Origin: Candidatus Bathyarchaeum sp.
Lineage (GTDB): Archaea > Thermoproteota > Bathyarchaeia > Bathyarchaeales > Bathyarchaeaceae
Direction: 5' to 3'
Length of the DNA stretch: 31,139 bases
NCBI GenBank assembly: GCA_004376385.1
Contig: SOJY01000063.1
Location: 1-31,139 of the forward strand
Shown here: positions 1,400 through 30,077 of the stretch, piece after piece
How the letters are laid out: each line of letters begins with the position of its first letter
How positions within the stretch are numbered: position 1 is the stretch's first letter
The notes under the pieces: generated by a model
Database searches by the model: none
Told to the model about the DNA's origin: nothing
What the model saw: the letters and a program-made list of their open reading frames with translations, nothing else
Program-made: the position numbers and the translations under genes

Positions 1400-2062
1400 A
1401 TGAGCCTGAAAATCGATTCTAAACTCAACACTCGTTTTCCAGACCTTACTGCTCTTACGCTCCAAGTTAAAGACGTGAAGATTCAGAAGAGAGACGCTGA
1501 GCTGGAAAAATTCAAGCTTGAGATAGTTAAGCAGGTTAGGAGAGAGTATGACCTAGACGCGGTAAAGGATCAGCCGATTTTCAGGTCTTACCGAAGCTTT
1601 TTCTGGAGAATAGGAATAGATCCCACAAAAATCCGTCCAGCAGCAGAGGCTCTGATCCGAAGAATTCTAGCAGGAAAAAACCTTCCATGCATAAACACTC
1701 TTGTTGACGCCTACAACCTAGCTTCTATTAAGAGCAGAATTGCCTTAGCAACCTTTGATGCGGATAAACTGGAGGGAAACCTTCTCATGAGATTCGCAGA
1801 AGAGGGCAAGCAGTTCTATGGAATTGGAATGGAGAAACCTTTGGTCTTGAAAGGTGGAGAGATAGTTGTCTCCGACGAAGAGAAGCTGATAGCTGTTTAT
1901 CCGTATCGGGATGCTGACAACACAAAAGTAACCGAGAAAACAGAAAACGTATCAATAGTGGTTTGCGGAGTTCCCGGCATAAACGAAGAAACATTAGAAA
2001 ATGCCTCACGCGTTGCACTGGAGTATATAAATTGTTTCTGTGACGGAGAAAACCGGAAATAG
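1400..2062 (+). CDS. Stand-alone B3/4 domain protein (PheRS beta editing-domain-like, putative trans-editing deacylase)
   Basis: YRSFFWRIGIDPTKIRPAAEALIRRIL, INTLVDAYNLAS, FDADKL and F.GIG motifs typical of B3/4 proteins. Confidence 0.85.
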   Translation: MSLKIDSKLNTRFPDLTALTLQVKDVKIQKRDAELEKFKLEIVKQVRREYDLDAVKDQPIFRSYRSFFWRIGIDPTKIRPAAEALIRRILAGKNLPCINTLVDAYNLASIKSRIALATFDADKLEGNLLMRFAEEGKQFYGIGMEKPLVLKGGEIVVSDEEKLIAVYPYRDADNTKVTEKTENVSIVVCGVPGINEETLENASRVALEYINCFCDGENRK

Positions 2063-6727: not shown

Positions 6728-7147
6728 TTACCAGCTGCGTAAGATTATCATGGTGTTTGTGTTGGAGACGCCCGTGAGTCGTCGTATCTTCTCAAGGCAG
6801 TCGTTGACCTCGGTTATGTTTAATCCTGATATGGTAACGGCGATGTCGTATTCTCCAGTGATCTCGTAGACTGTTTCCACGTTAGAGAACTGCTTGAGCG
6901 CTTTGGAAACATCCGAGGTCGGCAAAGACGGATCTACTGAAAGAAGAGCTATGGCTTCTGTGCCTTCTGTGAGTCCAACCTTGACGGTGAATCGCTGTAT
7001 TGTCCCCGAATCAACAAGGGCTTTGATTCTCTTCCGAACAGCTCCCTCAGACAAGCCAATTCTCTTTCCGATGTCGCTGTAGGTGGCTCGACCATCATGT
7101 TTCAGAATTTCGATTATCTCCTTGTCTGTATTATCCACTTTTTTCAC
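6728..7147 (-). CDS. lysM: Lrp/AsnC-family regulator, LysM type (start GTG 7147 or 7138 rather than 7246)
   Basis: D..D..IIEIL..DGR..Y..IG..IGLSEGAVRKRIK HTH; PT..VSK, VYE.TG.YDI and TNT.IILR.W C-terminus like Sulfolobus LysM; divergent from lysW. Confidence 0.85.
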   Translation of the reverse strand: MKKVDNTDKEIIEILKHDGRATYSDIGKRIGLSEGAVRKRIKALVDSGTIQRFTVKVGLTEGTEAIALLSVDPSLPTSDVSKALKQFSNVETVYEITGEYDIAVTISGLNITEVNDCLEKIRRLTGVSNTNTMIILRSW

Positions 7148-7295
7148 GCCCACTGTATTACAGTTGCGGAAAAATTTAACGGTTTCTGAACGTTTTGCAG
7201 CAGATTCGCAACGATTTCCGTATCCCGTCTCCCCTTTTCTCACCATAACTTGGAATATTTGTTGTTTGGATTTTTGACGGTTACAGCACCAATCC

Positions 7296-7697: not shown

Positions 7698-8879
7698 ATG
7701 AGCATCGGAATTTTGTTTGAGAGCTCCGAAACCGACGAAAAAGGCATCAAAATGACTGCAGAAGAAATGGGAATAGACTTAACGTACATCCCCTTCCGCA
7801 AAGTTGCAATTCGTCTAGACAAAAACGGTTACAGCCTTCGAACCAAAGGAAAAGATTACACAAACATTCTCAAAGACATCACAGTAGTGTTAAACAGGGC
7901 ACAAAGCAAGAACCGCAGGCTCTTCGCAGCCAACATTCTGGAGGCTTTCGGTAAACACGTGATAAACCCTCAATGCGTAGAATACGCCTGCTTCAGCAAG
8001 TTGAGGACATTACTTCATTTTTGGAAGGCTGGAATTAGGATTCCTGACACAGTTTATGTTCCAGTTGATCCTAACGAAAAAACATTGGATGGACGGGAGG
8101 TACATAACGAGGAAGACATAGCTGACTTGATGCAGCAGGAACTTGACAATAACATTGTAATCAAACCGGACGCTGGAACTCATGGAAAAAGCGTTAAACT
8201 CGCTAAAGAACGTGAAGAACTATTAAGTATTATCAGGGAAGTTGAGCCCTCGATAATTAATCCTGTGGGTGTTCTCGCCCAAAATCTTGTCCAGAAATGG
8301 TTCTATGACCTGAGAATAATAGTCACTAAAGAGTATGGAAAACAGCCATACTGTTATCCCACAGCGTTAGCGCGAGCGGGATTCAAGGATTTCAGGACAA
8401 ACACTTTCTTGGGCAACATGGTTATTGGAGTAAATTTGCCTCAGCACATTAGAGATGTTTCAGCTAAATGTGGTGCAGCCATTGGCGGAGACAGCGAAGC
8501 CTATGTTTTGGCTTTTGATGCAATGGTTGATGTGGGCGACAACAAAATCGTTGACGACGAGTATCTTAAAGCAGAGTTTGATAAGCTTGAGCCTTCTTTT
8601 GATGCTGTGAAAAACGTTAAGCGGGATAAAACTAAGAGGACAAACTTTCCAGAATGGAACAAGAAACTGGAAGCGGCTTTTGAAGACTACAAGAACCAAG
8701 ATGCTTACTTGAACATCAAGAATGTTATCGAAGAGAACATGGAAAAGAACAAACAAAAAATCATGTTCCATGAAACTAATGCGTGTCCCGAATTTTGGGA
8801 ACAAACTAGATTGGCTGCTGGGATAGATTTGGCAGAGGCACTGCTTAAAGGAGCCCAGAGCATTATAGACTCTGAATAG
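7698..8879 (+). CDS. lysX: Atypical LysX/ArgX-like ATP-grasp ligase with large insertions
   Basis: Aligns by eye with LysX (ILFES.ETDEK, VLNR, VIN, IP.T, VIKP..GTHG, Q..V.K..DLR, R....FRTN, FD...E.N..PEF); directly after lysW; 393 aa versus ~280 usual. Confidence 0.8.
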   Translation: MSIGILFESSETDEKGIKMTAEEMGIDLTYIPFRKVAIRLDKNGYSLRTKGKDYTNILKDITVVLNRAQSKNRRLFAANILEAFGKHVINPQCVEYACFSKLRTLLHFWKAGIRIPDTVYVPVDPNEKTLDGREVHNEEDIADLMQQELDNNIVIKPDAGTHGKSVKLAKEREELLSIIREVEPSIINPVGVLAQNLVQKWFYDLRIIVTKEYGKQPYCYPTALARAGFKDFRTNTFLGNMVIGVNLPQHIRDVSAKCGAAIGGDSEAYVLAFDAMVDVGDNKIVDDEYLKAEFDKLEPSFDAVKNVKRDKTKRTNFPEWNKKLEAAFEDYKNQDAYLNIKNVIEENMEKNKQKIMFHETNACPEFWEQTRLAAGIDLAEALLKGAQSIIDSE

Positions 8880-13605: not shown

Positions 13606-14046
13606 CTATAGGTCGAATGAGGTTTTGATCTTTATGAGACGCGTGGCTGCAGAAAGCGACACTTCCCTGACTCCCGGCATCATTTCGACTCTTTTTCTGA
13701 GGTCGCTTAGGTGCTCCAGATCGTGCGCATGAACCACTGCCACGATGTTGTATTCGCCGGTGTTCTGGAAAACGTGATAGGCTTCGGTTAAGTCGCTTAT
13801 TTGCTCGGACGTTTTTTCGAAGTGGTCAGGAGCTATCTTGACCATCAGTATGCCTGTTGTAGAGTATCCGATCTTTTTGGGATTAAGCAACACCGTGAAT
13901 TTGTTGATGATGCCATTGTCGATTAAGTTTTTGACGCGGTATCTTACTGTAGCCTCGCTGATTCCCAACTCGTTGGCTATATGCGTGTAAGAAGTTCTTG
14001 AATTCTCCTGAAGCAAATTCAAGATTCTCCTGTCCTTATCATCCAA
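13606..14046 (-). CDS. Second Lrp/AsnC-family regulator (start TTG 14046 rather than 14091)
   Basis: LDDKDRRILNLLQENSR.SY..IA.ELGISEATVRYRVKNL HTH; TG.Y..V RAM domain; divergent from pheA. Confidence 0.88.
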   Translation of the reverse strand: MDDKDRRILNLLQENSRTSYTHIANELGISEATVRYRVKNLIDNGIINKFTVLLNPKKIGYSTTGILMVKIAPDHFEKTSEQISDLTEAYHVFQNTGEYNIVAVVHAHDLEHLSDLRKRVEMMPGVREVSLSAATRLIKIKTSFDL

Positions 14047-14247
14047 CCGAAACACCAACAACACCCACCATAGACAACAACAAAAAAACATTTATTACTA
14101 TCGCACAAACCACAAACTACTGTTCAAATTTTCCTGTTCAACACTTTGGAAAACATCGTAATTTGCTGGAAACCTTGCCAGTTTTTGTGGTAAAGTGTTT
14201 TATTTTGGCTTTCATGTCAGATATTAGAATGGAATGGTGTGTTTGTG

Positions 14248-15078
14248 TTGCGGGTTGCTTTTCAGGGAGAACTTGGCGCTTATAGTGAGAGTGCAGTTTA
14301 CAGTTTTTTTGGTCAGTCTGCTGAGGTGAAGCCCTGCAAAAGCTTTGGTGATGTCTTCGAAAGTGTCAAAACTGGAGACGTAGATTATGGGGTTGTTCCC
14401 ATCGAAAACTCTATCGAGGGCAGCGTAAACCGCACCTACGACCTCTTCCTAGAATATGATCTGAAAGTCTGCGGCGAAATAATCATCAGAATCAGTCACT
14501 GCCTCATAGCCCACAAAGGAACCAGCATAGACTCGATCAAAAACGTCTATAGCCATCCCCAAGCCTTAGCACAATGTAGAAAATTTCTAGAACAGCATAA
14601 GCTCAAGGCAATCTCTACTTTTGATACTGCAGGCAGCGTAAAGATGATTAAAGAAGAAAACATGATGGACGCCGCAGCAATAGCCAGCGAAAGAGCCGCC
14701 CAAATCTACGACATGACCATACTCGCAAAAGAGATAGAGGACATCAAAAACAACTCCACCAGATTCTTTGTCCTAGACAAGCAGGACTCGTCCTATTCTG
14801 GAGAAGACAAAACATCCATAATTTTTGCAACCAAATCGATTCCCGGGGCATTATACAAGATATTGGGAGAGTTTGCTGACAGAAACATAAACCTAAGCAA
14901 GATAGAGTCTAGACCCACCAAGCAGACTCCATGGGAGTACCACTTCTATCTAGATTTTGAGGGGCACAGAACCGAAACAAAATGCCAAGAAGCCCTAGAA
15001 AGCATCAAAGACAAAACAATCTTTGTAAAAATCTTGGGCTCCTACAAGGCAGCCAAAAAACCCAACTTCAAACTCTAG
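14248..15078 (+). CDS. pheA: Prephenate dehydratase with ACT domain (start TTG 14248 or GTG 14239)
   Basis: AFQG..GAYSE, VPIENS.EGSV, SHPQAL.QC, TRF, PGAL...L..F....INLSKIESRP. Confidence 0.95.
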   Translation: MRVAFQGELGAYSESAVYSFFGQSAEVKPCKSFGDVFESVKTGDVDYGVVPIENSIEGSVNRTYDLFLEYDLKVCGEIIIRISHCLIAHKGTSIDSIKNVYSHPQALAQCRKFLEQHKLKAISTFDTAGSVKMIKEENMMDAAAIASERAAQIYDMTILAKEIEDIKNNSTRFFVLDKQDSSYSGEDKTSIIFATKSIPGALYKILGEFADRNINLSKIESRPTKQTPWEYHFYLDFEGHRTETKCQEALESIKDKTIFVKILGSYKAAKKPNFKL

Positions 15079-15944
15079 GAATCATCCAAAAGCCGATACA
15101 TAGCCCGATAAGCACGTTCATACTCAGGGTCTAATTCACGCAACCGCTTCTTAACCTGCCCCATCTTACGGCTGAAACCAGCACAATCCTTACTCTTCAC
15201 CATCCTGAGCCACTCTTCAACCTTACTCAAAAACAAGCCCTCAATCTTCTCCATCTCAGGCAAGCTCATGTGAAGATTCGAATAGAAAACAGGCTCCTCA
15301 GAAGAAACAGCCTCCGCCAAAGTCAACAACAACTTATACGTGGCTCCACCCACCGCTTTCGCATCAACAAAGTTAGGATTATTCATTAGAGTGTCGCCGG
15401 CAACCAAACCCACAAAATGAGGAAAACCCAAAACCAAAGACATCAACTCATCATGTTTTCTAGGCGACAAAACAGACACCACGGCTCCACACTTCTCCAG
15501 CCAGCCCCTGAACTCGCCAGCAAACCGTTTCTCCTCATCGCCTACGGGAGTAAGAACAAAATTCTGTCCCTCAAGACTTCTTGCGCCGGGACCAAAAACA
15601 GGATGCGTCCCCAACGTAACACCATGCTCCACATGCTTGTGTAGCAGATTCACGGGAATCTCTTTGATAGAGCCGATGTCCATGACAACCTGATCTGGGC
15701 GCACATGAGAACCAATCTCCCTCAAAACAGCATCTAAGCTGTCAAGAGATACACACAACAAAATCCAGTCAGCATTATCAACAGCCTCCACGTTGCTGCG
15801 GGCTACATCAACCCCAAACTCAGCCCTTAACGCCTCTGCCTTGCTTCGGGTTCGGCTAGAAACAACTACAGAAAAGCCTTCTTCACGGAATAACTTTGTG
15901 AACCATTGACCCATCTTTCCAGCGCCAATAATCGCTACTCTCAA
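15075..15944 (-). CDS. tyrA: Prephenate dehydrogenase
   Basis: IIGAGKMG Rossmann motif, DIGSIK, HPVFGP, HD..M...LG.PH. Confidence 0.92.
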   Translation of the reverse strand: MRVAIIGAGKMGQWFTKLFREEGFSVVVSSRTRSKAEALRAEFGVDVARSNVEAVDNADWILLCVSLDSLDAVLREIGSHVRPDQVVMDIGSIKEIPVNLLHKHVEHGVTLGTHPVFGPGARSLEGQNFVLTPVGDEEKRFAGEFRGWLEKCGAVVSVLSPRKHDELMSLVLGFPHFVGLVAGDTLMNNPNFVDAKAVGGATYKLLLTLAEAVSSEEPVFYSNLHMSLPEMEKIEGLFLSKVEEWLRMVKSKDCAGFSRKMGQVKKRLRELDPEYERAYRAMYRLLDDS

Positions 15945-17062
15945 GGTAGAGCCTCACAGAGCTTCTCCAAGCCCTCTCTAATCTTCTCCTCGTTCACAGT
16001 TAAGGCTATCCTAACGTATTCACGGTAATCCCCGAAGGCGGTTCCGGGAGCCACAGCAACCCCCTTGTCCAGAAGGTCCAAGGCGAAACGTTCTGAATCT
16101 AAGCCATCAACCTTAGGAAACAGATAAAACGGTGCATCAGGACGAGAAAACCGCATCTTCGACTTCGAAAGAACAGAGTACGCCGCATCTGCTCTCACCT
16201 TAAACTGCCTCCGGATATCATCTGCAATCTTTTTTCTAGACTCCAAACCCTTCAAAGCGCCGTACTGGATAAACGCTGGAACACATGTTGTGGTTATCTG
16301 GTTTAGCTTGATCATCCGCGTAGCCAATTCCTTTTCAACAACAACGTATCCGATTCTCCAGCCCGTCATCAAGAACGATTTCGAAAAACCAGTCACCAGA
16401 ATATTGTCTGCCCCAAAATCGAGGATAGATTTAGCTTTAACGAAGCTGATGTCCGAGTAAACCTCATCCGACAGAACCGTTACTCCCTTGCTTTTTGCTA
16501 TCTGAACAATCTCACTGAAAGTTTTGTCATCAATAACCTTGCTCGTTGGATTATTAGGGCTATTCAGTATTATCAGCCGCGTCTTGTCATCAATCAAAGC
16601 TTCAAGTTTTTCAGCGTCAACCTTCCAGTCAGACTCAAGGTCTCTCCTCAAAAACCGTATTTCAGCCCCAATCTTCTTCGCGGCTAACTCGTAACTGGTC
16701 CAATGAGGAGACGGAACAACAACGTTCTCTCCCCGCTTCAACAACAGAAACAACAAAGAAAAGATCGCCCACTTCGAACCAGTGGTCACAACCACATTAT
16801 CCACAGACACGCCATGAATCCTAGCCAACTCTTCTCGCAGCTTCTTCTCGCCAGCAGCAGAAGAATACTTCGTCTTTCCCTGCTTCATAGCTTCGTACGC
16901 TGCTTCAACTATTTCAGGCGGTGTTGGCAGGTCTGGGTCTCCCAGATTAAACTTGATCATCTCTTTTCCTTGATTCTCAAGTTGTATCGCTTTTTCGCTT
17001 ATTTCATACAGCATCTTCCTTAACTCCCAAGGGAACATAGAACTGACTGTTTTTCTCATCAA
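15941..17062 (-). CDS. Class I/II PLP aminotransferase (probably aromatic/aspartate)
   Basis: G.PD..TP, NSPNNPT, DEVY, GFSK....TGWRIGY, PG.AFG, R; substrate inferred from operon position. Confidence 0.85.
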   Translation of the reverse strand: MMRKTVSSMFPWELRKMLYEISEKAIQLENQGKEMIKFNLGDPDLPTPPEIVEAAYEAMKQGKTKYSSAAGEKKLREELARIHGVSVDNVVVTTGSKWAIFSLLFLLLKRGENVVVPSPHWTSYELAAKKIGAEIRFLRRDLESDWKVDAEKLEALIDDKTRLIILNSPNNPTSKVIDDKTFSEIVQIAKSKGVTVLSDEVYSDISFVKAKSILDFGADNILVTGFSKSFLMTGWRIGYVVVEKELATRMIKLNQITTTCVPAFIQYGALKGLESRKKIADDIRRQFKVRADAAYSVLSKSKMRFSRPDAPFYLFPKVDGLDSERFALDLLDKGVAVAPGTAFGDYREYVRIALTVNEEKIREGLEKLCEALP

Positions 17063-17090
17063 GAATTGTGTAATACTGCTTTAAGTCTTC

Positions 17091-17357
17091 TCATTCAGCA
17101 CCTTGAACAAAGACGCCCAAAGCAATTATGTCTTTGAAGATTGCTTCAACTTTTTGGGGATCAAGACCAGACTCCAAAGCCTTCGCCATGGCATGCAAGT
17201 AAACTTCATCTTCTCTGTGATGATCCTTGACAGCTAACCCATTTTTTCCTTTGATAGCCCCGATACATTTGCAGAGGTACATCCGATCCTTCAACAAAAG
17301 GACAAGCTTCTCATCAATCGCGTCAATCTTCTTCCGTAACGTCACTATATTCTCCAA
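17091..17357 (-). CDS. Chorismate mutase, AroQ type (start TTG 17357 or 17366)
   Basis: LRKKIDAIDEKLV.LL..R......IG..K......V.D..RE..V. Confidence 0.88.
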   Translation of the reverse strand: MENIVTLRKKIDAIDEKLVLLLKDRMYLCKCIGAIKGKNGLAVKDHHREDEVYLHAMAKALESGLDPQKVEAIFKDIIALGVFVQGAE

Positions 17358-18468
17358 CAGCCTCAACTCCCAACACCTTAGGTATCAAACCTGCCCGAAG
17401 CAGCTGATCAACCAAAACCATGGCAACAGAAGCCTCAACAACAGGAACAGCCTTCGGCACAATACACGAATCATGCCTGCCCTTAACATGAATCGTTGTA
17501 TCTGCCATATTCAACATGTCCACGGTCTTTTGCTCCTTCGAAATAGATGGAGTCGGCTTCACAGCCACCCTAACCACAATGGGCATCCCAGACGATAAAC
17601 CACCCAAGACACCGCCAGCATTATTGGTTACAGCCTCGATTTCTCCATCCCGTATCACATATGAATCATTATTCTCTGACCCCTTCAGCCGTGCAGCCTC
17701 AAATCCAACGCCAAACTCAACACCTTTAACAGCGGGAATATCAAAAAGCATCTTTGCAAGTTCTGCATCCAACGAATCAAAGATGGGTTCACCGACCCCC
17801 GCCAAAACATTGGATGCTACACACTCAACAACTCCACCCACGCTGTCACCCATCTTCTTAGCCTTCAAAATCGTTTCCTCCATCTCAACAGCAACCTTTG
17901 GGTCTGGGCACCTCACCGAGCTTCCATAAGTCTTCTCCCTAATGTCCTCAAGAGACTGTGTTGACCGCATTTTGACGCCTCCAATCTCAGTGGCGTATGC
18001 TAGAACTTCGATGCCGGCAAGCTCCAGCAGTTTCTTGGCTATAGCACCAGCCATAACAAAAGCAACTGTGATTCTGCCCGAGAATCTTCCTCCACCCCGA
18101 TGATCATTAAATCCTAAATACTTGATTCTGGCGGGATAGTCTGCGTGTCCGGGTCTAGGAGTATGCCTTATTGCATCGTAATCGTCAGAAATAACTTCCT
18201 TGTTCCACACCAAAACGCAGATTGGAGCACCAGTTGTAAATCCCTCATAGATGCCCGACAGAATCTCAACAGCGTCTTCTTCTCTTCTGGCAGAAACAAT
18301 CTCCTCTTTTTTGGGTAACCGTTTGTCAAGTTCTTTCTGGATATCCTCTTCGTTTAAAGGAAGTCCCGCTGGACACCCATCTATGACTACTCCGACGCAT
18401 CTGCCGTGGCTTTCGCCGAAGCAGGTTACAACGAATTCTTTTCCTATCGAATTAGATCCCAACGACAT
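17323..18468 (-). CDS. aroC: Chorismate synthase
   Basis: GESHG, RPGHADY, GGGR.SGR.T, NNAGG..GG.S.G, KPTPSI, GRHD.CI. Confidence 0.96.
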   Translation of the reverse strand: MSLGSNSIGKEFVVTCFGESHGRCVGVVIDGCPAGLPLNEEDIQKELDKRLPKKEEIVSARREEDAVEILSGIYEGFTTGAPICVLVWNKEVISDDYDAIRHTPRPGHADYPARIKYLGFNDHRGGGRFSGRITVAFVMAGAIAKKLLELAGIEVLAYATEIGGVKMRSTQSLEDIREKTYGSSVRCPDPKVAVEMEETILKAKKMGDSVGGVVECVASNVLAGVGEPIFDSLDAELAKMLFDIPAVKGVEFGVGFEAARLKGSENNDSYVIRDGEIEAVTNNAGGVLGGLSSGMPIVVRVAVKPTPSISKEQKTVDMLNMADTTIHVKGRHDSCIVPKAVPVVEASVAMVLVDQLLRAGLIPKVLGVEAVGEYSDVTEED

Positions 18469-19729
18469 TCGCTCCTAACACACGCAGATCACTGAAGAAC
18501 TGCGGATACGACTTATTTATGCATTCAACATTTTGAATTTTCGTTTCGCCCACGGCTCCAAGAGCCGCTACGGCACAAGCCATGGCGATCCGATGGTCAT
18601 TGTGGGGATCAATAGTCGCCCCATGCAATCCAGATGAACCGTTTATGGTTAAGCCGTCCTCGTTCACGACGATGTCTGCCCCCATCTTCTTCAGTTCTGT
18701 GCTTATCGAATCTAGTCTATCTGATTCCTTGTATCTAAGCCGCTTCGCATTATATATCTCCGAACGTCCCTCAGCGTAACACGCAAGAACAGCACAGACA
18801 GGAACCAAATCTGGAATATCCTTCGCGTCGATATCAACCCCAACAAGCTGGCCCCCTTCAACATCTACAGAATTGTCTCTTATCTTCACTGCTGCACCCA
18901 TCTCCTCAAGGATACTTACTATCGCCCTGTCGCCCTGAGCCGTTTGATACTCAAGATTCTTCACTGTTACCCGTGATGAAGTAACCGCCGCGGCTGCCAA
19001 AAGGAAAGCTGCAGACGAAAAATCTCCAGGAACAGTATGATCACATGGTCTATAACTTTGATTTGAGGGAATCCACAGGCACGAAAGCTCAGGGTTTACA
19101 GCACCTTCAAGTCCATGCTCAACCAATACTTCAAAGGTCATCTCAACGTAGCCCTTAGACTCCAGCTTAGTTGTTACAGCAATTTCCGTGTCTTCGTTTG
19201 CCTTTGGACAAGCAAACAGTAATCCAGAAATGAATTGGGAGCTTATGTCTCCCCTTATCGAAGTTTTTCCTCCACGGATTCCCCCTCCACGAACCATAAC
19301 AGATGAATTGTTTCTTTGAATAGTAGATTCGACTCCCAGTTCCTTGAGGCTTTCAAGAAGGGGCGCCACAGGTCTTCGTTCAAAGGATGCCCCAAAAAGG
19401 AATGTTGAATGTCCGGGTGCAAGGGCTGCAACTGGAATCATGAAACGCAGTGTTGACCCAGACTCTCTGCAATCTATCGGATGATCAGGAGTCTTGAGTG
19501 TTTCTTGTCCATGGATTGTCCAATAATTTTCATGTAATTCTGTTTCTGCCCCAAGGGATTTTACTGCCTCTAGGGTTGCTTGGGTGTCATCCGAGATGAG
19601 TGGATTGAAGATTTTTGAGGCTCCATTTGACAATGATGCGGCTATGAGCATCCGGTGAGTGTAAGCTTTTGATGGAGGAGCCGAGACCACACCATCCAGA
19701 TGATCTGTGTTCTCGACTGTAACATCCAT
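18452..19729 (-). CDS. aroA: EPSP synthase
   Basis: PPSK..THR, ESGSTLRF, RRP, SSQF.SGLL, GD.SSA.F, PDL.P, LR.KESDR, DHRIAMA, KSYP.F. Confidence 0.96.
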   Translation of the reverse strand: MDVTVENTDHLDGVVSAPPSKAYTHRMLIAASLSNGASKIFNPLISDDTQATLEAVKSLGAETELHENYWTIHGQETLKTPDHPIDCRESGSTLRFMIPVAALAPGHSTFLFGASFERRPVAPLLESLKELGVESTIQRNNSSVMVRGGGIRGGKTSIRGDISSQFISGLLFACPKANEDTEIAVTTKLESKGYVEMTFEVLVEHGLEGAVNPELSCLWIPSNQSYRPCDHTVPGDFSSAAFLLAAAAVTSSRVTVKNLEYQTAQGDRAIVSILEEMGAAVKIRDNSVDVEGGQLVGVDIDAKDIPDLVPVCAVLACYAEGRSEIYNAKRLRYKESDRLDSISTELKKMGADIVVNEDGLTINGSSGLHGATIDPHNDHRIAMACAVAALGAVGETKIQNVECINKSYPQFFSDLRVLGANVVGI

Positions 19730-19732
19730 TTT

Positions 19733-20605
19733 TCAGCATACCACCCTAGCTTTCTCCAGATTAATCCGAGCCTCCAAGATTTCTCCCTCACGCTTCCGCC
19801 AAACCTCCTTCACAAGGTCTACATTTTCTTCAGAAACGATAGCAGAAACAGCGGGTCCAGTTCCAGACAATCCAGCGGCAATTGCTCCTGCTGTGAGGGC
19901 ATCTACTGCAGAGGATGAATCATAACCTAGTGCTGAAGAGTAGATTAAACCGTTCAAGGTTAGGGCTGCCCAGTAGTTACCATTCAACGCTTCCTTGTAG
20001 GCAATCTTGACGGCGGAAGCCATGCTTTTCATTCGCTTCACGTCTGAGCATGCAGTATAGGTTTTTTCTGCTGGAACATAAAACAGAACAGCGGGAGCTT
20101 CAGTTAGCTCAAAGCGCTTAATGATTCGTCGTTCCATGTTGTCGGTGATTACGACTCCGCCAAAATACGAGGCGCAGGCATCGTCGAAGGCTCCAGTTAT
20201 AGTGACCTTAGCGTCTAATGCGCCGTCAACGCCCAGCTTCACCACTGTAACGTCATCTAAGTTACGTTCTATGGCGGCTGTGGTTGCCAAGGCGATGGCA
20301 TTTGCTGCTGCGCTGCTGCTCTTTAGTCCCCTTGCTACTGGAATGTTTGATGTTGTTTCGACTTTGGCGCCAAACTCCTGTTCTAAACCGAAATGTTTGA
20401 GGATACGCCCAACGGTTTTTTGTGCCAAAGCAGGGTTCTCTGAAGAGTCAGAACGAATAGTAACGTCCACATGTCCCGCTTCGTTTGTGAGGGCTACGGC
20501 AGCTTTTGTCCACAGGTCCACGCCTACGGCTGCTCCCTTGCCCGTTGCTATCGCATTAATTATCGTAGCTGCGCCGTGAGCTATTGCCTCAGCTCTTCCA
20601 GTCAA
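19733..20605 (-). CDS. aroK: Archaeal shikimate kinase (GHMP superfamily)
   Basis: GAATIINAIATGKG, IP..RGLKSSSAAANA, GAFDDA.AS..GG, GLSGTGP. Confidence 0.93.
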   Translation of the reverse strand: MTGRAEAIAHGAATIINAIATGKGAAVGVDLWTKAAVALTNEAGHVDVTIRSDSSENPALAQKTVGRILKHFGLEQEFGAKVETTSNIPVARGLKSSSAAANAIALATTAAIERNLDDVTVVKLGVDGALDAKVTITGAFDDACASYFGGVVITDNMERRIIKRFELTEAPAVLFYVPAEKTYTACSDVKRMKSMASAVKIAYKEALNGNYWAALTLNGLIYSSALGYDSSSAVDALTAGAIAAGLSGTGPAVSAIVSEENVDLVKEVWRKREGEILEARINLEKARVVC

Positions 20606-21471
20606 TGGCGGACACCCTGTTTCTCAAGTTCGTTCAATGCTGCATTCCTCATCACTTCAACAGGAGCAGGACAGTTAGTCCAGATTTCGAAGGCAACAGC
20701 TCCCTGATAAATAAGCATCTCAAGACCCGACACAACCTTGGAGCCTACAGATTTTGCGTCCGCTATAAGCCGTGTTTCTAATGGATTATAGATTATATCC
20801 ATCACGCACAAATCAATCCTCAGCAAACTCGACGGAACAGGGCTACTGTTAACGTCAGGATGCATACCCACAGAGGTGGCGTTAACCAGAATATCCGCGG
20901 TTTCCAGTTCATCCTTCAGAACCGTAGACGAGAGCGTTCCGCCTTTCACTTTGTTGCCAAAACTCTTGCGTAGCACGTCAGCTAATTTTTTTGCTTTCTC
21001 TGGGGTTCTGTTAAGGATAACAAGCTCAGCCACATCTTGGGCTGCATGATAGGCTATGGCTTTTGCTGCGCCTCCAGCTCCGAGAAGAACCAGCTTTTTT
21101 TCTTCTGGATACACGCCGTTTTCTTGCAGGGCAATCATGGCGCCATTACCGTCTGTGTTGTATCCAATCAGCTTTCCTTGGTTGCTGAGGATCGTGTTCA
21201 CTGCACCGATAGCCTTTGCCGTCGCGTCCACCTCATCCAGGTAGTTCATGACAGCGTTTTTGTGGGGCATGGTCACGTTCAATCCTCGAAGACCCAGACG
21301 TCTTGCGCCCAGAATGGCGTCCTTCAACTCTTTTGTTGTTACTGTGAAAGCCACGTAAACAAGGTTTAATCCCAACTCTTTGAAGGCGGCGTTATGCATT
21401 ACGGGACTTAGAGAGTGCTCTACTGGGTCGCCGATGATGGCGCAAACCCTAGTTTTCCCAGAGATTCCCAT
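20602..21471 (-). CDS. aroE: Shikimate dehydrogenase
   Basis: G.PV.HSLSP.MHN, NVTMPHK, GAVNT, NTDG, GAGGAA, NRT..KA, D.IYNP, GL.ML..QG. Confidence 0.96.
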   Translation of the reverse strand: MGISGKTRVCAIIGDPVEHSLSPVMHNAAFKELGLNLVYVAFTVTTKELKDAILGARRLGLRGLNVTMPHKNAVMNYLDEVDATAKAIGAVNTILSNQGKLIGYNTDGNGAMIALQENGVYPEEKKLVLLGAGGAAKAIAYHAAQDVAELVILNRTPEKAKKLADVLRKSFGNKVKGGTLSSTVLKDELETADILVNATSVGMHPDVNSSPVPSSLLRIDLCVMDIIYNPLETRLIADAKSVGSKVVSGLEMLIYQGAVAFEIWTNCPAPVEVMRNAALNELEKQGVRH

Positions 21472-21472
21472 T

Positions 21473-22159
21473 TTATTTTAGCCCCAGAGCCTCGTATGCA
21501 CGCTTCATTTCTTGTATGGTTAATTGTCCTTTTGCCGTTTTTCTTTTTTCGTCAAGAGAAGCAAAAGTAAAGAAAGCACCGAAAACAGGAGACACCAACC
21601 TAGAATGCTTACCGAGTTCGCCCATAGCAAAACAGACCAGCTTGGCTTTCTTGGAAGCCTCTGAAACAAAATTTAATGTAATCAGGTTGTCTTCCACACT
21701 TCTGGCTGTGGTTATAATCTTGCAGACATCAGCTCCCAAAGCAACTTCTTCATCGAGAACCTTGCCAAGTTGCGATAACGTAGGGGTCTGTTCAAAATCA
21801 TGGAACGAAACTATGACGTTTGCTCCCGCTTCGTGCAGATTACGAATTAATTCAATTTGCTTGGGCGTACCTAAGTCTACGTCCACGTATTCAAAGCCGT
21901 TTCTCGCGGCATCCATCAAAATTTTTTGGCGTTCAGTTTCGCTTCCAGAAAAATTGCCGTTACACACGATTGATTTGTTTGTGGCTATCAAAGGCGTTTT
22001 GCTGCATGATGGAATGTCTGCGATGCGGTCATGTTTGTTGAGGCTGTCAAGTCTTACTTCAATGAGGTCTGCGTGTTGAGTCTCAGCCTGCTCTATTAAA
22101 CAAAATGCTTCATCAACGGTTTTGGGAGGAATTGCGACGCAGACTTTGATTGTCAACAC
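21473..22159 (-). CDS. aroD: Type I 3-dehydroquinate dehydratase (start GTG 22159 or TTG 22156)
   Basis: E.RLD, YVD.DL, S.HDF..TP, D..KI, MG..G..SR, TFA, A.GQ. Confidence 0.9.
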   Translation of the reverse strand: MLTIKVCVAIPPKTVDEAFCLIEQAETQHADLIEVRLDSLNKHDRIADIPSCSKTPLIATNKSIVCNGNFSGSETERQKILMDAARNGFEYVDVDLGTPKQIELIRNLHEAGANVIVSFHDFEQTPTLSQLGKVLDEEVALGADVCKIITTARSVEDNLITLNFVSEASKKAKLVCFAMGELGKHSRLVSPVFGAFFTFASLDEKRKTAKGQLTIQEMKRAYEALGLK

Positions 22160-23223
22160 TCGATCACGGCTTCTTCTTTCACCAATGTTCCGAAGTGCCT
22201 GCCGCCCTCTTCCACGCGAGCCAGAATCTTGTCGCCCTTCTCCAAGTCCGTTACTGCCTTGGAGCCCTCTGGGGTCACAACCCGTATGGTTTCGGCGTTC
22301 TGGGAAATCAACTTCAACGTTTTGCCGTTGTATTCCGCCTCAATGAGCAGCATGGGACGCCATTCAATCTTCGCCCGCGCAACATTAGTCAACCGGACAT
22401 TTCCTTCTCTATCCACCACAAGAACTTCTTCCCCAGATTTCAACTCCGACAAGTATCTAGTTCTAGTTGGGGAAGTTAGGGCGTACAGTGAGAGCGGCCC
22501 AGCGTTTACTCTGAAGGGGCGTGTTTCCACGTATGGGCTTTCATGAACCTCAGCCTGAACCAGAAACAGCCCAGAAGACTGGCAACCCAAAAGAATGCCC
22601 TCTCCCGGCTTCATAAGGTCACACGTGTCGATGCAGGCTCGGGCGCCGGTTCCAATCTCCTTCAACTCAACAACCTCAACAGCAACCAACTCAAGCGCAA
22701 GAGACTCCTTCTTTGCACACTCTGCTGTTTCCTTGAGTTCTTCAAGGCTAGCTGTCTTCAGGACTACTCCGTCTGATCCTAGCTCCAACGTTTCCAAGGC
22801 AACCTTCGCCTCTTTTGTGCTGGAGACTTCTGCGAGCAACTTGGTTTTTCCTCGGGTCTTGGCGATTAGGTTCTCTAAGGGAATAATTTTCCAGTCAGGA
22901 GTGCCAACAATAACGTAATCGCATGAAAGCTCAGCCGCTGCTATGGCAGTCTTTTCATCCTGTTTTCCTTCAATGACTATTTTCACAGCGACAAGTCTGC
23001 CCTTAGCCTTCAACTCCTTAAGTTTCTCAGAGTCGAATATGGAAAGAACAGTGATGTCTGCTTCTTCTGATGTTGAGGCAGTTTTAATTCCAGAATTTTT
23101 GGCTATCTCTATGTCCTTTGTATCAACCAGCACGGCATCGCAGGTCTGAGCCGCAGACTTGAGCAGTTTAGTTTTCTGGTTTTCGGGAAGGGATGTGTCT
23201 AGTTCGATCCAAAGTTGTTTCAT
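22153..23223 (-). CDS. aroB': 3-dehydroquinate synthase II (archaeal alternative route)
   Basis: W.IIPLENLIA, LE.G.DGV, G.R.C.DTC.L...GEG.L.G, RPFRVNAG, YLSEL..G, KIE.RP, QNAETI, RHFG. Confidence 0.94.
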   Translation of the reverse strand: MKQLWIELDTSLPENQKTKLLKSAAQTCDAVLVDTKDIEIAKNSGIKTASTSEEADITVLSIFDSEKLKELKAKGRLVAVKIVIEGKQDEKTAIAAAELSCDYVIVGTPDWKIIPLENLIAKTRGKTKLLAEVSSTKEAKVALETLELGSDGVVLKTASLEELKETAECAKKESLALELVAVEVVELKEIGTGARACIDTCDLMKPGEGILLGCQSSGLFLVQAEVHESPYVETRPFRVNAGPLSLYALTSPTRTRYLSELKSGEEVLVVDREGNVRLTNVARAKIEWRPMLLIEAEYNGKTLKLISQNAETIRVVTPEGSKAVTDLEKGDKILARVEEGGRHFGTLVKEEAVIEC

Positions 23224-24011
23224 TTGGATTCACCAAGAATCTCTATGGCTTTGTCGACTGATACCGCTTTGTGGACAATGGCTGAGAGAGCCTTGACTAT
23301 CTTTGTTGGGTCTTCGTGTTGAAACACGTTTCTGCCAATCGAGAGCCCTGCCCCTCCAGCAGTTATGGAATCCTTTACCATCTGCAAGACATCCCTAGTG
23401 GTCTCTACTTTTGGTCCACCAGCAATAATGACTGGAACATGGCAACTGCTGACAACATCTTTGAATGATTCAACATCGCCGGTGTAGTTTGTTTTTATAA
23501 TGTCCGCTCCTAACTCTGCGCCTAAACGGGCTGCATGAGCCACCACATCCACTGCATGTGAATCCCTGATGTTTGGTCCTCGGGGATACATCATAGCCAG
23601 CAATGGCATGCCGTAATCGTCGCATTCGCAGGCTACCTTACCCAACATTGAGAGCATCTGTGCTTCCTGTTTAGCGCCCACATTAATGTGAACTGAAACA
23701 GCATCAGCCCCCAATCGGACAGCATCGTCTACAGAGCAGATTTGCACCTTATTGTTTGGGTCAGGACAATGTACGGTAATTCCGGACAAGTGAACAATTA
23801 ATCCCGCGTTTCCTGTGTCAACATTTTTTGCTATGCCCCTGTTGATGACAACCGCGTCAACGCCACCCAGCAACAACTTGTCAACGATGCTCTGCATGTT
23901 CACTAGTCCCTTAACTGGACCGATTGTTACGCCGTGATCCATGGGAACAATTACTGTCCTGTTGTCGCTTCGGAAGATTCTTCTTAGCCGTCTTTTTTTA
24001 CCTGATTCCAA
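23220..24011 (-). CDS. aroA': 2-amino-3,7-dideoxy-D-threo-hept-6-ulosonate (ADH) synthase, DhnA-type class I aldolase
   Basis: PMDHG, GADAVSVH.N.G, MYPRG, AELGADIIKT.Y.G, AGGPK, GRNVFQ; adjacent to aroB'. Confidence 0.9.
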   Translation of the reverse strand: MESGKKRRLRRIFRSDNRTVIVPMDHGVTIGPVKGLVNMQSIVDKLLLGGVDAVVINRGIAKNVDTGNAGLIVHLSGITVHCPDPNNKVQICSVDDAVRLGADAVSVHINVGAKQEAQMLSMLGKVACECDDYGMPLLAMMYPRGPNIRDSHAVDVVAHAARLGAELGADIIKTNYTGDVESFKDVVSSCHVPVIIAGGPKVETTRDVLQMVKDSITAGGAGLSIGRNVFQHEDPTKIVKALSAIVHKAVSVDKAIEILGESK

Positions 24012-24025
24012 AGGTTTTCTCTCCT

Positions 24026-25063
24026 TTAGATGAACTTCTTTACTTTCAAGTATTCTGCGTTAAGGATGCCGCATCCAGCAGCTCCCCGTATGGTATTGTG
24101 CCCCAAAGCAATAAATTTCACCCCACCTAACACGGGGTCCTTTCGGATTCTACCAACTACGGTGCTCATGCCCTTGCCCTCCATTCTGTCCAATCTAGTT
24201 TGTGGACGATCCTTCTCCCATGTAACAATAACTGGTTTTTCTGGGGCTGAAGGAAGCTTTAGCTTTTGGGGTTCCCCAACAAAGTTTTCCATAGCCTCAG
24301 CTACAGCATTGGGTTCCGCCTTCTTCTTTGTCTCTACGAAGACGGCTTCCATGTGACCATCAATCGTTGAAACTCTGTGGCAACTGGATGAAACCTTAAA
24401 ATCTGCTGGTTTTGAAGCAGTGCCCAAAATCTTCTGGGTTTCAGTTTCCATCTTGTTCTCTTCTCCTCCGATGAAGGGGATAACATTATCCACTATATCC
24501 AAGGAGGCTACGCCTGGGTATCCAGCGCCCGAGATCGCCTGCATCGTAGACACTATGAGGCTGTTGATGCCAAACTCGTCAAAGATCGGCTTCAGGGGCA
24601 AAGTTAGGACTGTTGTGCTGCAGTTGGGGTTTGTTACGATGGCGCCGTCCCACTTCCTTTTTCTGCGCTGTTCCTCTATGAGGCTGACGTGGCTGCAGTT
24701 TATTTCAGGATTCAGCATGGGAACGTCAGGGTCCATTCTGTGAGCAGATGCGTTGCTAACCACAACGTATCCTGCAGAGGCGAAATCCTCTTCCACCTTT
24801 CCAGCCACAGCAGAAGGTAACGCCGAGAAAACAATGTCAACATCCTTAACTGCCCTCGAGTCAATATCTACGACTTCCATCTGCGCAACAGCTTCCGGAA
24901 TGGGCGTTGATTGCCGCCACCTTGACGCTTCATTGTATGTTCGTCCTTTGCTTCTTTCTGAGGCTGCAACAGTTGTAACCTCGAACCATGGGTGCCCATC
25001 TAGCAGTTGAACAAAGATTTGACCGACATTGCCTGTTGCTCCTAAAACAGCTGCTTTCAACAT
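24026..25063 (-). CDS. asd: Aspartate-semialdehyde dehydrogenase (archaeal type)
   Basis: LGATG.VGQ, ASERS.G, SNAS..RM, NPNCST, QA.SGAG, HNTIRGAAG. Confidence 0.96.
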   Translation of the reverse strand: MLKAAVLGATGNVGQIFVQLLDGHPWFEVTTVAASERSKGRTYNEASRWRQSTPIPEAVAQMEVVDIDSRAVKDVDIVFSALPSAVAGKVEEDFASAGYVVVSNASAHRMDPDVPMLNPEINCSHVSLIEEQRRKRKWDGAIVTNPNCSTTVLTLPLKPIFDEFGINSLIVSTMQAISGAGYPGVASLDIVDNVIPFIGGEENKMETETQKILGTASKPADFKVSSSCHRVSTIDGHMEAVFVETKKKAEPNAVAEAMENFVGEPQKLKLPSAPEKPVIVTWEKDRPQTRLDRMEGKGMSTVVGRIRKDPVLGGVKFIALGHNTIRGAAGCGILNAEYLKVKKFI

Positions 25064-26316
25064 TTTCTGTCATCTCGTAATGCGTTTCTAACCAAATTTA
25101 GGGCTTTTTCTCTTTCGTCCCATTTTACGAAGAGAAGAATGCTGGAAGTGATTGTCATAAGTCCAAAAATGTTAATGCAGTTTACCCTCAAAGCCTCGGA
25201 TATTCTTCCTGTGAGACCCGGCGTCTGTTCTAAGCCAACGCCCTTGATTTTGAGGAATGCTAATTGTTTCCTGACAGACATGGCCAAGGTCTCCTCGTGA
25301 TTCAGGATTACTTCATGCACTTTCTCTAGAAGCAATTTGGAATTAGAGTTCTCTGAAACGTAGAGAATCATTGAATCGTAGTTCAAGGATAATCCCAGCA
25401 GTTCCGCGTGGTTCTTCACTGTTTCAGCAAGCTCTTTTATAACCTGAGGACTTTCTGAAACCCCTTTGCCTACAACAGTAATCGACAGGGAAGGAGATGG
25501 ACTTGCAAGTTCTACATCCAAGTCGCTTGAGAGTGCTCCCTTGATCAACGTACCCTCCGCGTTTAGATCGCCGTGAATGTGCTTGATTACCCTAACTTTT
25601 ACTGACGCATCCTTGTATCGCAATGCTTTCCTGTGAATGAATTTTGTGCCCGAATCCGCTAATCCAACCAAAGTGCTCACATCAATCTCTGGAAGACGCT
25701 TAGGATTGTCTATTACCTTGGGGTCGGCTGACATGATTCCTTCAGCATCAGTAACTAGGATAAGTTCATCCGCTTCTAAAGCCTTCGCTAAGATAAAGGC
25801 AGTTGTATCACTTCCACCCCTCCCCAATGTGGTTACTCGATTGTCTTTGGTTCTGCCCACGAAACCCGCAATCACAGGGATAACGCCATCCTCAACAAGG
25901 GGAAGCACATTCTGTTTAGCCCGTTCGTAGCAAGTATCCAAAATTGGGTTTGCATCTGAGAACAAGTCATCAGTTATGATCGGCCATTCGGGGTCGTGTG
26001 GGTCCACGTAACGGGAGTTCACTCCCTGTGCTTTTAATGCGGCGGCGATGATTCTGATGCTGGTTCGTTCCCCCATGGCCAGAATCTCGTCTAAATCTTT
26101 CTTATGTAACCTACCATTAGAGCTGTTTTTGGCTGCGTGAAAGAGTGTATCCGTGGTTTTTCCCATAGCCGAAACGATCACGGCGATTTGGGTACCCTTC
26201 TTTGCTTCTTTAGCAACTGCCGTAACTGCCCTCAATATCCGTTCGTGGTCTGCGAGGCTTGAACCTCCAAATTTAACCACGATTCTTTTGCGGTTTTTTT
26301 CCTTATTTTGTTTCAT
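25057..26316 (-). CDS. lysC: Aspartokinase with C-terminal ACT domains (start ATG 26316; in-frame ATG also at 26334)
   Basis: VVKFGGSS, VSAMG.TTD, GE..S, TLGRGGSD.TA, TD..G...ADP; GGAGG at 26332-26328. Confidence 0.92.
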   Translation of the reverse strand: MKQNKEKNRKRIVVKFGGSSLADHERILRAVTAVAKEAKKGTQIAVIVSAMGKTTDTLFHAAKNSSNGRLHKKDLDEILAMGERTSIRIIAAALKAQGVNSRYVDPHDPEWPIITDDLFSDANPILDTCYERAKQNVLPLVEDGVIPVIAGFVGRTKDNRVTTLGRGGSDTTAFILAKALEADELILVTDAEGIMSADPKVIDNPKRLPEIDVSTLVGLADSGTKFIHRKALRYKDASVKVRVIKHIHGDLNAEGTLIKGALSSDLDVELASPSPSLSITVVGKGVSESPQVIKELAETVKNHAELLGLSLNYDSMILYVSENSNSKLLLEKVHEVILNHEETLAMSVRKQLAFLKIKGVGLEQTPGLTGRISEALRVNCINIFGLMTITSSILLFVKWDEREKALNLVRNALRDDRKC

Positions 26317-26335
26317 AACAACTAAACCCTCCATG

Positions 26336-26380
26336 AAGCCCAGAAAGCTAAGATGCGAATTTTTTTAGCTAGCTGGGCTT
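26336..26380 (-). promoter_or_regulatory. 14-bp imperfect hairpin directly upstream of the lysC SD
   Basis: AAGCCCAG-cu-AGCUAA / 13-nt loop / UUAGCU-uu-CUGGGCUU. Confidence 0.6.
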
Positions 26381-26453
26381 AATTATAAAAGAAATAGCTA
26401 AAGCTATAGAACATCGAAGAATTACTCGTTGAAGTCGTCGAGTGGCTATTCAT
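26379..26453 (-). CDS. Putative Phe/Tyr-rich leader peptide MNSHSTTSTSNSSMFYSFSYFFYN (not in the ORF track)
   Basis: Hand-translated: ATG 26453 to TAA 26381-26379; second in-frame ATG at 26414; upstream of the aromatic operon and downstream of a BRE-TATA. Confidence 0.55.
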   Translation of the reverse strand: MNSHSTTSTSNSSMFYSFSYFFYN

Positions 26454-26495: not shown

Positions 26496-26511
26496 TATAT
26501 AAAAAATTATC
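26496..26511 (-). promoter_or_regulatory. Distal BRE-TATA for the lysC-aro operon
   Basis: Minus strand GATAAT-tt-TTTATATA; predicted start ~26472, giving a ~155-nt leader. Confidence 0.5.
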
Positions 26512-26575
26512 GTAGAGAAAAAATGGAGGCAAAAGACGACTTCAAAGTACGCCTATGCCCATACTGCTTGAATGC

Positions 26576-28628: not shown

Positions 28629-30077
28629 GTGTCGGGATATGACGGTAGAAAACCGGAAACAAAAGAAGAATTCATCGATTTACTGGTTACAGCCAAGAAA
28701 GAGGAAAGAAGAATAAGGAAATCTCGGGGTAGCAGGTCGACGAAACCGACAATAAAGGGTACGGCCGAAGTCATGGGGATTCACCGTGACACTTTGTATC
28801 AGTGGATGAGAGAATTTGATGTTGACTTTTCGGATGTTGATGAGAGGGAACTGCTTTTCGAAGAAGCCACGAAGCGCAAAGAAACCACATATCTGATTGG
28901 CGAGGCTTTGATGGGTGAAGGCACAGAGGTTGCCCATGTAGATTTGCTGATTGGCGACAAGGATGGTCCTGTTGGGCAAGCTTTTGCCAACGGTTTGTCG
29001 AACTTGTCTGCCGGTCACACTCCGCTTCTAGCAGTTATACGTCCGAATCTTCCACCCAAACCGCATACGCTTCTTGTGCCAAAGGTCACTGTGAAAAATA
29101 TGGAGCAGATAGGAAAGATTTTTGGTCCTGCTCAGGCAGCCGTAGCAAAGGCGGTTGCTGACTCTGTCGAAGAGGGGATTATTCCGGAGGACAAGGTTGA
29201 TGATTGGGTGATCATCTGCAGCGTCTTTATTCATCCGCAGGCTAAGGATTATCGCAGCATTTATCATTATAATTATGGAGCAACAAAACTGGCGTTGTCG
29301 AGGGCTTTGGAGAATTATCCTTCACTGAAGAAGATCATGTATGATAAAGACAGGGCGAAGCATCCGATAATGGGCTTCAAAGTGCCTAGATTGTGGAGAC
29401 CACCCTACCTGCAGGTAGCCCTTGATGTTCCCAACTTGGAAAGAGTCAAGAAAATCATAAACGAGCTGCCGGAGAGCGACAGAATCATACTGGAGGTTGG
29501 TACACCTCTGCTGAAGAAGTACGGCGTGAACGTCATCCGTGACTTGAGGAAGGTGGCTAAAGACATGTTCATCGTAGCTGACCTGAAGACGTTGGATGTC
29601 GGAAAAGTGGAGGTTGACTTAGCCTTTGAGGAAACAGCCGACGCAGTTGTAGTCGCTGGTTTAGCAACTCCAGAAACTATCGACAAATTCATCAAAGAAG
29701 CAAAACGGCTAGGAATCTACGCAATAATGGATTTGATGAACGTTGACGACCCCATCGGCAAACTTCGGTCACTCAAAAGATTGCCTGATGTTGCGATTCT
29801 ACATCGTGCCATAGATGCGGAGAAAACAGGCAAAACACGCTGGGATATAATCAAGGAGATGCGGCAGACATTCCAAGGCAAGAAGTTTTTGGTAGCAGTT
29901 GCAGGCGGCATAACTCCGGAGACAGCGCCTGAAGCGTTGGCAAATGGGGCAGACATCATCATTGTCGGACGATACATAACGCAATCCAAGGACGTAGAGC
30001 GGGCAACCAGAGAATTCTTGAAGAGCACAAAAGACATGGCACAGGACATAGACCTCTTCAGGGTACACGTAGAATAA
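28629..30077 (+). CDS. fae-hps: Formaldehyde-activating enzyme / 3-hexulose-6-phosphate synthase fusion with an extra N-terminal HTH domain
   Basis: Fae: IGEAL.G.G...[38 protein letters not shown]; Hps: LQVALD, E.GTP, D.K..D, H..D, AGGI, VGR.I; aa 40-65 form an HTH. Confidence 0.93.

Follow-up and report, generated by a model that had tools for sequence, protein, structure and literature searches.

In Escherichia coli, the leaders of pheL-pheA and trpL-trpE couple operon expression to the supply of the end product; the pheL peptide ends in FFFTFP, and the stop codon of the trp leader abuts region 2, which is invaded only by a terminating ribosome. For Corynebacterium glutamicum aroR-aroF, a leader containing the motif Phe-Tyr-Phe in front of the DAHP synthase gene reportedly exerts its effect at the level of transcription (Neshat et al. 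2014, cited after a passage of PMC11802643). In mycobacteria, ribosomes stalled on leaderless short ORFs with polycysteine tracts prevent an RNA fold in which the ribosome-binding site further downstream would be masked (Canestrari et al., 10.1101/834739). In ermCL-ermC and cat, as outlined in a passage of the same paper (10.1101/834739), a ribosome arrested on the leader remodels hairpins that govern the downstream Shine-Dalgarno (SD) sequence. A full-text literature search retrieved descriptions of leader-peptide control for bacteria only and no report for archaea, with papers beyond the searched literature being possible; the relevant passage of PMC8448881 names promoter recruitment as the sole known target of archaeal transcription regulation.

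The window analyzed here, a stretch of 31,139 nt from Candidatus Bathyarchaeum sp. (assembly GCA_004376385.1, contig SOJY01000063.1), contains a biosynthetic operon preceded by a short ORF (Table 1). Like pheL and trpL, this ORF would open the operon mRNA and is rich in codons for the end products of the pathway. Reading of the minus strand from 26453 to 26379 confirmed the 24-codon upstream ORF (uORF) of the initial annotation, with four Phe and three Tyr codons among codons 15–23, and its internal ATG, which is codon 14. The aromatic run ends one codon before the stop, and the first half of the peptide is rich in Ser and Thr. Most leaders of the genus also contain one Trp codon, which has been lost from the window copy by a change of TGG to TCG. 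In a survey of the 1.59-Mb assembly for ATG-initiated ORFs of 10–60 codons, covering both strands and all frames, the leader was the sole one among 15,103 ORFs with at least seven aromatic residues in its last ten positions. A cruder genome-wide screen for uORFs rich in one amino acid yielded noise only.

Table 1. Features of the leader region and the downstream operon; positions refer to the window.
Feature	Position	Strand	Description
Predicted archaeal promoter	26496..26512	-	BRE-like CGATAA, then TATA box TTTATATA (26503-26496)
Leader ORF	26379..26453	-	24 codons and UAA; ATG 26453-26451, TAA 26381-26379; peptide MNSHSTTSTSNSSMFYSFSYFFYN
Candidate helix P1, 5' strand AAUAGC	26445..26450	-	Leader codons 2-3; tentative
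Aromatic codon run	26385..26411	-	Codons 15-23, F Y S F S Y F F Y; presumed stalling zone
Candidate helix P1, 3' strand GCUAUU	26393..26398	-	Leader codons 19-21, within the aromatic run; tentative
Helix P2, hairpin abutting the leader stop	26336..26380	-	AAGCCCAG-CU-AGCUAA, 13-nt loop, UUAGCU-UU-CUGGGCUU
Shine-Dalgarno GGAGGG of aspartate kinase	26327..26332	-	4-5 nt past the end of P2
Aspartate kinase, first operon gene	25057..26316	-	NCBIfam NF005159, E 1e-114
Remaining operon genes	15075..25063	-	asd to prephenate dehydrogenase (tyrA)
Type II chorismate mutase, 91 aa	17091-17366	-	Between aroC and aminotransferase
Prephenate dehydratase	14239-15078		Convergent to the operon

The position claimed for the ORF, directly ahead of an operon for Phe and Tyr synthesis, agrees with the gene content: an aspartate kinase gene and 11 further genes follow on the same strand. 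The ORF finder gives ATG 26334 as the start of the kinase; it is assigned here to ATG 26316, since the interval from 26334 to 26316 is interrupted by frame breaks or stops in relatives. The kinase gene is followed by asd and by the genes for ADH synthase (aroA'), DHQ synthase II (aroB'), aroD, aroE, archaeal aroK, aroA, aroC, chorismate mutase, an aminotransferase and prephenate dehydrogenase (tyrA), twelve genes in total which abut or overlap. The chorismate mutase gene fills an apparent gap between aroC and the aminotransferase gene, so that with its 12 genes the operon covers every step of the route leading from aspartate to the precursors of Tyr and Phe. Its products, namely chorismate, prephenate and the Tyr/Phe precursors, lead to exactly the amino acids that are enriched in the leader ORF. 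Lysine is made by the LysW/alpha-aminoadipate route, the genes of which are also present in the window; the kinase and asd are therefore dispensable for lysine synthesis and free to feed aspartate semialdehyde to aroA'.

To find out how far the leader extends beyond the window, upstream regions of kinase orthologs were inspected in related genomes, all metagenome-assembled and from uncultured organisms. An aromatic-rich uORF ends 37–72 nt before the start of the orthologous kinase at 28 of 28 loci of one set, at 80 of 80 loci of another, and at 31 of 59 more distant loci. The set of 28 consists of 25 loci of the genus and three from other families, the latter three with kinases 51–63% identical; here the uORF ends about 40–55 nt before the projected start. 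The 80 loci were the best ones, all from Bathyarchaeia, in a scan of one genome per species that yielded 403 relatives, and the more distant loci stem from a class-wide draw of 401 genomes, from which 60 upstream regions of distant orthologs (47–58% identity) were taken. The aromatic-rich uORF is absent from two loci where the kinase is a paralog (37% identity). In total, 120 distinct leader sequences were obtained from at least 12 families (f1, f5, f6, f9, f11, f14, f19, f27, f30, f32, f34 and f37). Their N-terminal halves vary in sequence, with length differences in whole codons. Within clades, cores such as S-F-[DG]-Y-Y-F-Y-Y are well conserved; between families, only the aromatic composition is kept.

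Families f26 and f35 possess another conserved upstream ORF with few aromatic codons (MGDRLFGDGVY... or MSGYIFGGHIYGDHYW...). At these loci (L114–L129 and L154–L173, e.g. L117, L118 and L120) the replacement ORF or RNA block is located about 100–150 nt upstream, and the kinase frame remains open for 30–70 codons further upstream, overlapping the block, which could be a diverged leader or an N-terminal extension of the kinase. In the window, the kinase frame closes within P2. At loci L141, L142, L160, L171 and L146 (f9 subgroup and f15), a run of Thr codons precedes the aromatic run, e.g. MNKPIATTTTTQFGYFSGYW...; these codons might add sensing of the aspartate family. The feature is not general, because the largest clade has Lys, Glu, Asn and Ser at this place. 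The regions upstream of trpE in three Bathyarchaeum genomes (L111–L113) do not contain a Trp-rich leader, so that a general use of leader peptides is not seen in the lineage. In the same three regions, the annotated start of trpE is overlapped by a short ORF in another frame, MRD(N/S)(V/F)W..., which renders the true start of trpE uncertain. A phylum-wide pattern scan for six consecutive TWY codons gave matches as frequently as the reversed control.

Codon statistics were calculated for the last 11 sense codons of the 120 leaders, anchored at the stop codon. Phe, Tyr and Trp account for 68% of the codons in frame 0, as compared to 10% and 14% in the other two frames, and stops are absent from this stretch in frame 0, whereas frame 2 contains a stop in 90 of the 120 leaders. 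All three stop codons are used (TAA 71, TAG 34, TGA 15). At codons -2 to -10 before the stop, 51–96% of the leaders encode Phe, Tyr or Trp; codon -1 is aromatic in just 23%, compared with 81–96% at codons -2 to -5. A run that ends one to two codons before the stop is a feature shared with pheL and trpL, and many leaders of the Bathyarchaeia end in YYYHFP. In the most aromatic codons (-2 to -5 and -7), 82–97% of the leaders have T at position 1; position 2 is mainly T or A, which exchanges Phe for Tyr, and position 3 is T or C, which is synonymous. By this signature, the pattern is one of selection for Phe or Tyr codons and not of a T/A-rich promoter element. The comparison suggested along with the initial annotation, a search upstream of lysC in relatives for conserved Phe/Tyr-rich uORFs with synonymous variation, has thus produced 120 leaders with T/C switches at the third position.

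The TATA box TTTATATA of the predicted promoter is located 42 nt upstream of the leader ATG, and the promoter block ACGATAAT(C/T)TTTTATA is kept across all loci of the genus. Given the position of the TATA box, the usual archaeal TATA-to-start spacing predicts a transcription start at about 26473 and a 5' UTR of about 20 nt, in agreement with the distance of about 20 nt between start and uORF that had been claimed. A sigma-70 promoter and terminator scan of the window, which is not suited to archaea, gave nothing. The locus was found in 24 public read runs; two of these are labelled as RNA, with one short contig each, and one of the two is probably DNA.

As in trpL, the stop codon of the leader abuts the 5' strand of a hairpin, which is region 2 there and P2 here. 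The initial annotation had stated that the UAA supplies the first two hairpin bases; indeed, its AA pairs with U26337-U26336 to form the first two pairs of P2. The SD begins 4 nt after the last paired base (5 nt if the hairpin is taken to end at 26338). P2 starts 0–4 nt after the stop in all 120 leaders, in 104 of them with the first base itself, and an SD-like motif begins 0–13 nt, mostly 2–7 nt, past the hairpin in 119 of 120, i.e. outside P2. The hairpins measure 28–62 nt and fold with energies between -9 and -30 kcal/mol. Among 62 representatives that differ in their stems, the energy averages -16.7 kcal/mol as compared to -7.3 kcal/mol for dinucleotide shuffles evaluated under the same positional rule; 6.5% of the shuffles perform equally well. 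Within clades, 95–96% of the P2 cells are paired, with some compensatory changes. Between families, the stem is replaced outright while pairing is kept, as in GCCCAG/CUGGGC, GGAGAAACC/GGUUUCUCC, GCUUCGAAACC/GGUUUCGAAGC and AGCCAAGAC/GUCUAGGCU, indicating that structure and placement are conserved and not a protein-binding sequence. A stop codon combined with the GCCCAG...CUGGGC pattern has one further match in the genome, on another contig. Searches against Rfam 15 gave no match at gathering score anywhere in the window.

A second helix, P1, probably connects the beginning of the leader mRNA with the aromatic run. Among 53 leaders of a neighboring clade, RNAalifold without prior input predicts a 7-bp helix, UCGAAGC:GCUUCGA, which joins the 5' UTR (UCGAAGC, 1–5 nt before the ATG) with the AGC-UUC-GA codons that open the aromatic run. 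None of its pairs is broken in 371 cells, and the changes that occur are one-sided and G-U-compatible only. The AGC-UUC-G(A/G)C codons show no synonymous change; other Phe codons of the same leaders do change. In the f9 subgroup, the equivalent helix comprises 11 bp, CCAAUAGCCAC:GUGGCUAUUGG. Its 5' strand is read as Pro-Ile-Ala-Thr in this subgroup, and the AAUAGCC core of this strand as Asn-Ser-His in the genus of the window; conservation in differing frames points to the RNA level. In f30, the 5' strand of the helix is the SD-like AGAAGGAGUC of the uORF itself. For the window, P1 is considered tentative because only 82% of the cells pair in the genus alignment. When the best duplex between the 5' region and the aromatic run was determined for all leaders, it was moderately better than for shuffles (mean z -1.2). 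P1 is likely to be real in general; outside two clades, its support is moderate.

That a presumably translated leader ORF rich in Phe and Tyr codons reports the aromatic supply to the operon is strongly supported by these comparisons, and the element is probably a cis-acting, ribosome-stalling leader-peptide sensor of this supply. Of the leader-peptide attenuator initially proposed, the Phe/Tyr-rich leader sensor is supported, in view of the 120 leaders, the frame-specific codons, the three stops and the fixed geometry of hairpin and SD. The "classical" part of the proposal is not, as P2 carries no conserved U tail and a mutually exclusive set of 1:2, 2:3 and 3:4 hairpins could not be demonstrated; translational control is therefore at least as likely as transcription termination.

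In the proposed mechanism, the operon mRNA would start about 20 nt upstream of the 24-codon ORF, and the position of the ribosome on the leader would provide a readout of the level of charged aromatic tRNAs, i.e. those for Phe and Tyr and, in most relatives, Trp. With ample supply, the ribosome would reach the stop codon and melt the GC-rich base of P2; this would free the 3' arm and lower access to the SD of the kinase gene. With scarce supply, the ribosome would stall in the run, 2–12 codons before the stop, covering the 3' strand of P1 and leaving P2 folded. Under these conditions the kinase's ribosome-binding site may be open, resulting in increased operon expression. Since codon -1 is mostly non-aromatic, a stalled ribosome would abut the hairpin, and only a terminating one would invade P2. 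According to commonly cited footprint dimensions, a ribosome whose A site is three or more codons away from the stop falls short of the hairpin; at codon -2 it would open about 3 bp, and at the stop codon about 9 nt, covering the GC-rich base of P2.

SD accessibility was modelled by partition-function folding with a 27-nt ribosome footprint masked. The mean for 119 leaders was 0.34 when a ribosome occupied the stop, 0.38 when the RNA was free, and 0.445 when the ribosome was stalled four codons before that position. The respective values are 0.17, 0.71 and 0.81 for f14, and 0.32, 0.36 and 0.43 for the genus of the window. The masking effect is small and clade-dependent, being strong in f14 but slight in this genus and in the largest clade. 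Its sign agrees with the physiology to be expected, in that kinase translation would go down under sufficiency and up under starvation, although the effect is weak. Our best guess for the output is that the hairpin controls the initiation of translation, rather than termination or mRNA decay, and the model lends weak support to it. Within the sensor hypothesis, the chances that P2 reports completion of the leader appear about evenly balanced. A duplex between the uORF tail and the kinase's ribosome-binding site ("P3") was also considered. Individual cases looked compensatory; over 86 leaders, the pairing was at chance (mean z -0.3, 8 of 86 below -1.64), and the candidate was rejected as a general feature. 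An SD outside P2 together with chance-level tail pairing argues against simple sequestration of the SD.

The element differs in several respects from the described systems. As compared to E. coli pheL and trpL, it belongs to the other prokaryotic domain of life, a conserved terminator with a U tract and a demonstrable 3:4 partner are missing, and the strand that contains the codons has its predicted partner upstream, in the 5' UTR or around the start, and not downstream. The archaeal leader moreover mixes Phe, Tyr and often Trp codons, and the first gene under its presumed control is an aspartate kinase feeding the aroA'/aroB' route. C. glutamicum aroR, as far as it is described in the source cited above, is similar in that a mixed Phe/Tyr leader regulates, via ribosome stalling, the enzyme through which the common aromatic pathway is entered, but has only Phe-Tyr-Phe, whereas the archaeal leaders possess 7–10 aromatic codons and a hairpin abutting the stop. 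With the mycobacterial polycysteine ORFs, the archaeal leader shares the location of an amino-acid-specific short ORF at the head of a biosynthetic operon and access to the ribosome-binding site as the proposed output. However, the Cys tract itself pairs with the ribosome-binding site there; the equivalent pairing is at chance here, and the conserved element is the hairpin between stop and SD. In ermCL and cat, too, an arrested leader ribosome remodels hairpins which govern a downstream SD, but arrest in these systems, going by the passage cited, is drug-induced and dependent on the nascent peptide, and the SD is inside the hairpin, in contrast to its position just outside in the archaeal leaders.

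Classical transcription attenuation, in which P2 and a U-rich tail would terminate the archaeal RNA polymerase and a ribosome at the last leader codons would block P2 and allow read-through, is an unlikely explanation. P2 is followed by UUCAU in the window, by UUCUU or UUUUU in other members of the genus, and by U5–U7 in families f14 and f11, where the arrangement looks terminator-like; f1 in part also has a U-rich tail. In the U5–U7 families, a transcriptional variant is conceivable; in most members of the largest clade (58 distinct leaders), the 8 nt that follow P2 contain 0–2 U. To touch the hairpin, a ribosome would have to stall at the final codon or the one before it, although codon -1 is in most cases non-aromatic, and a conserved pairing partner of the 3' arm of P2 (region 3:4) was not found in the leaders. 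Simple coupling models moreover give the wrong sign, with starvation leading to termination, and in archaea it is oligo-T, not a hairpin, that intrinsic termination requires. A constitutive device without amino-acid sensing, operating by termination-reinitiation, ribosome hand-over or protection against 5'-3' decay, would agree with the observation that the folded hairpin sets the uORF stop beside the kinase SD in every family and, in one clade, with the involvement of the mRNA 5' end in P1; bacterial leader ORFs have been proposed to raise downstream translation, as mentioned in a passage of PMC4833913. We nevertheless regard it as quite improbable, as it does not account for the frame-specific enrichment of end-product codons, which is seen in at least 12 families although the remainder of the peptide is free to drift.

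The well-kept cores within clades, such as the one quoted above, might also indicate an aromatic-rich micropeptide that acts in trans, e.g. on the kinase or the membrane. There is very little to recommend this reading: the codons paired with the 5' UTR in P1 are invariant without synonymous change, suggesting conservation at the RNA level, the AAUAGCC block occurs in different frames in different families, and it is composition and not sequence that persists across families. That the ORF arose by chance from promoter DNA rich in T and A, with the internal TTTTATAA as the real TATA box, is hardly credible. The aromatic run is indeed T/A-rich and contains TATA-like strings, and the initial annotation had raised both points as caveats; chance T-richness is, however, excluded by the frame specificity of the three-base periodicity, and the ORF is unique within its genome, with leader start and stop being kept in 120 leaders. 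A transcript starting past the internal TATA would begin inside the loop of P2 and leave the conserved 5' arm untranscribed. If such a box were the only promoter, it would be difficult to explain why pairing between the two arms is conserved, since this pairing implies transcription of the 5' arm.

A sensor of aromatic supply at this position would explain the coupling to its end products of an unusual operon in which the genes for aspartate kinase and asd are combined with those of the aroA'/aroB' shikimate route. A class-wide archaeal leader ORF would show ribosome-sensing logic in the second prokaryotic domain. If true, a terminator-free sensor would demonstrate for the first time that ribosomes mediate amino-acid control in archaea, and its mechanism might be of a new type. 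It is conceivable, but rather doubtful, that archaea possess a widespread leader-sensor class of their own, in which a hairpin clamped between leader stop and SD reads completion of the leader without a terminator, possibly via (re-)initiation. The repeated geometry of aromatic run, spacer codon, stop, hairpin and SD offers a mutable element for studies of translation feedback in archaea. As regards annotation, the 24-codon gene has been missed in hundreds of genomes.

Several other genes of the window deserve mention. An Lrp/AsnC-family regulator is encoded at 13606–14091 (-), adjoining the divergent prephenate dehydratase gene, and a second one at 6728–7246 (-), between two gene clusters of the LysW-dependent lysine route; both are candidate protein-level regulators of these same pathways. 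A RimK/LysX-like ligase of 393 aa, encoded at 7698–8879 (+), scores 82 bits against a LysX cut-off of 276 bits and exceeds the profile length by about 110 aa, suggesting that the LysX of the LysW cluster is divergent or contains an insertion. The 220-residue product of 1400–2062 (+) is a stand-alone B3/4 domain protein, a domain type known from the beta subunit of Phe-tRNA synthetase. A Fae-Hps fusion is encoded at 28629–30077 (+); its Fae domain starts at residue 90, after an N-terminal extension of about 89 residues.
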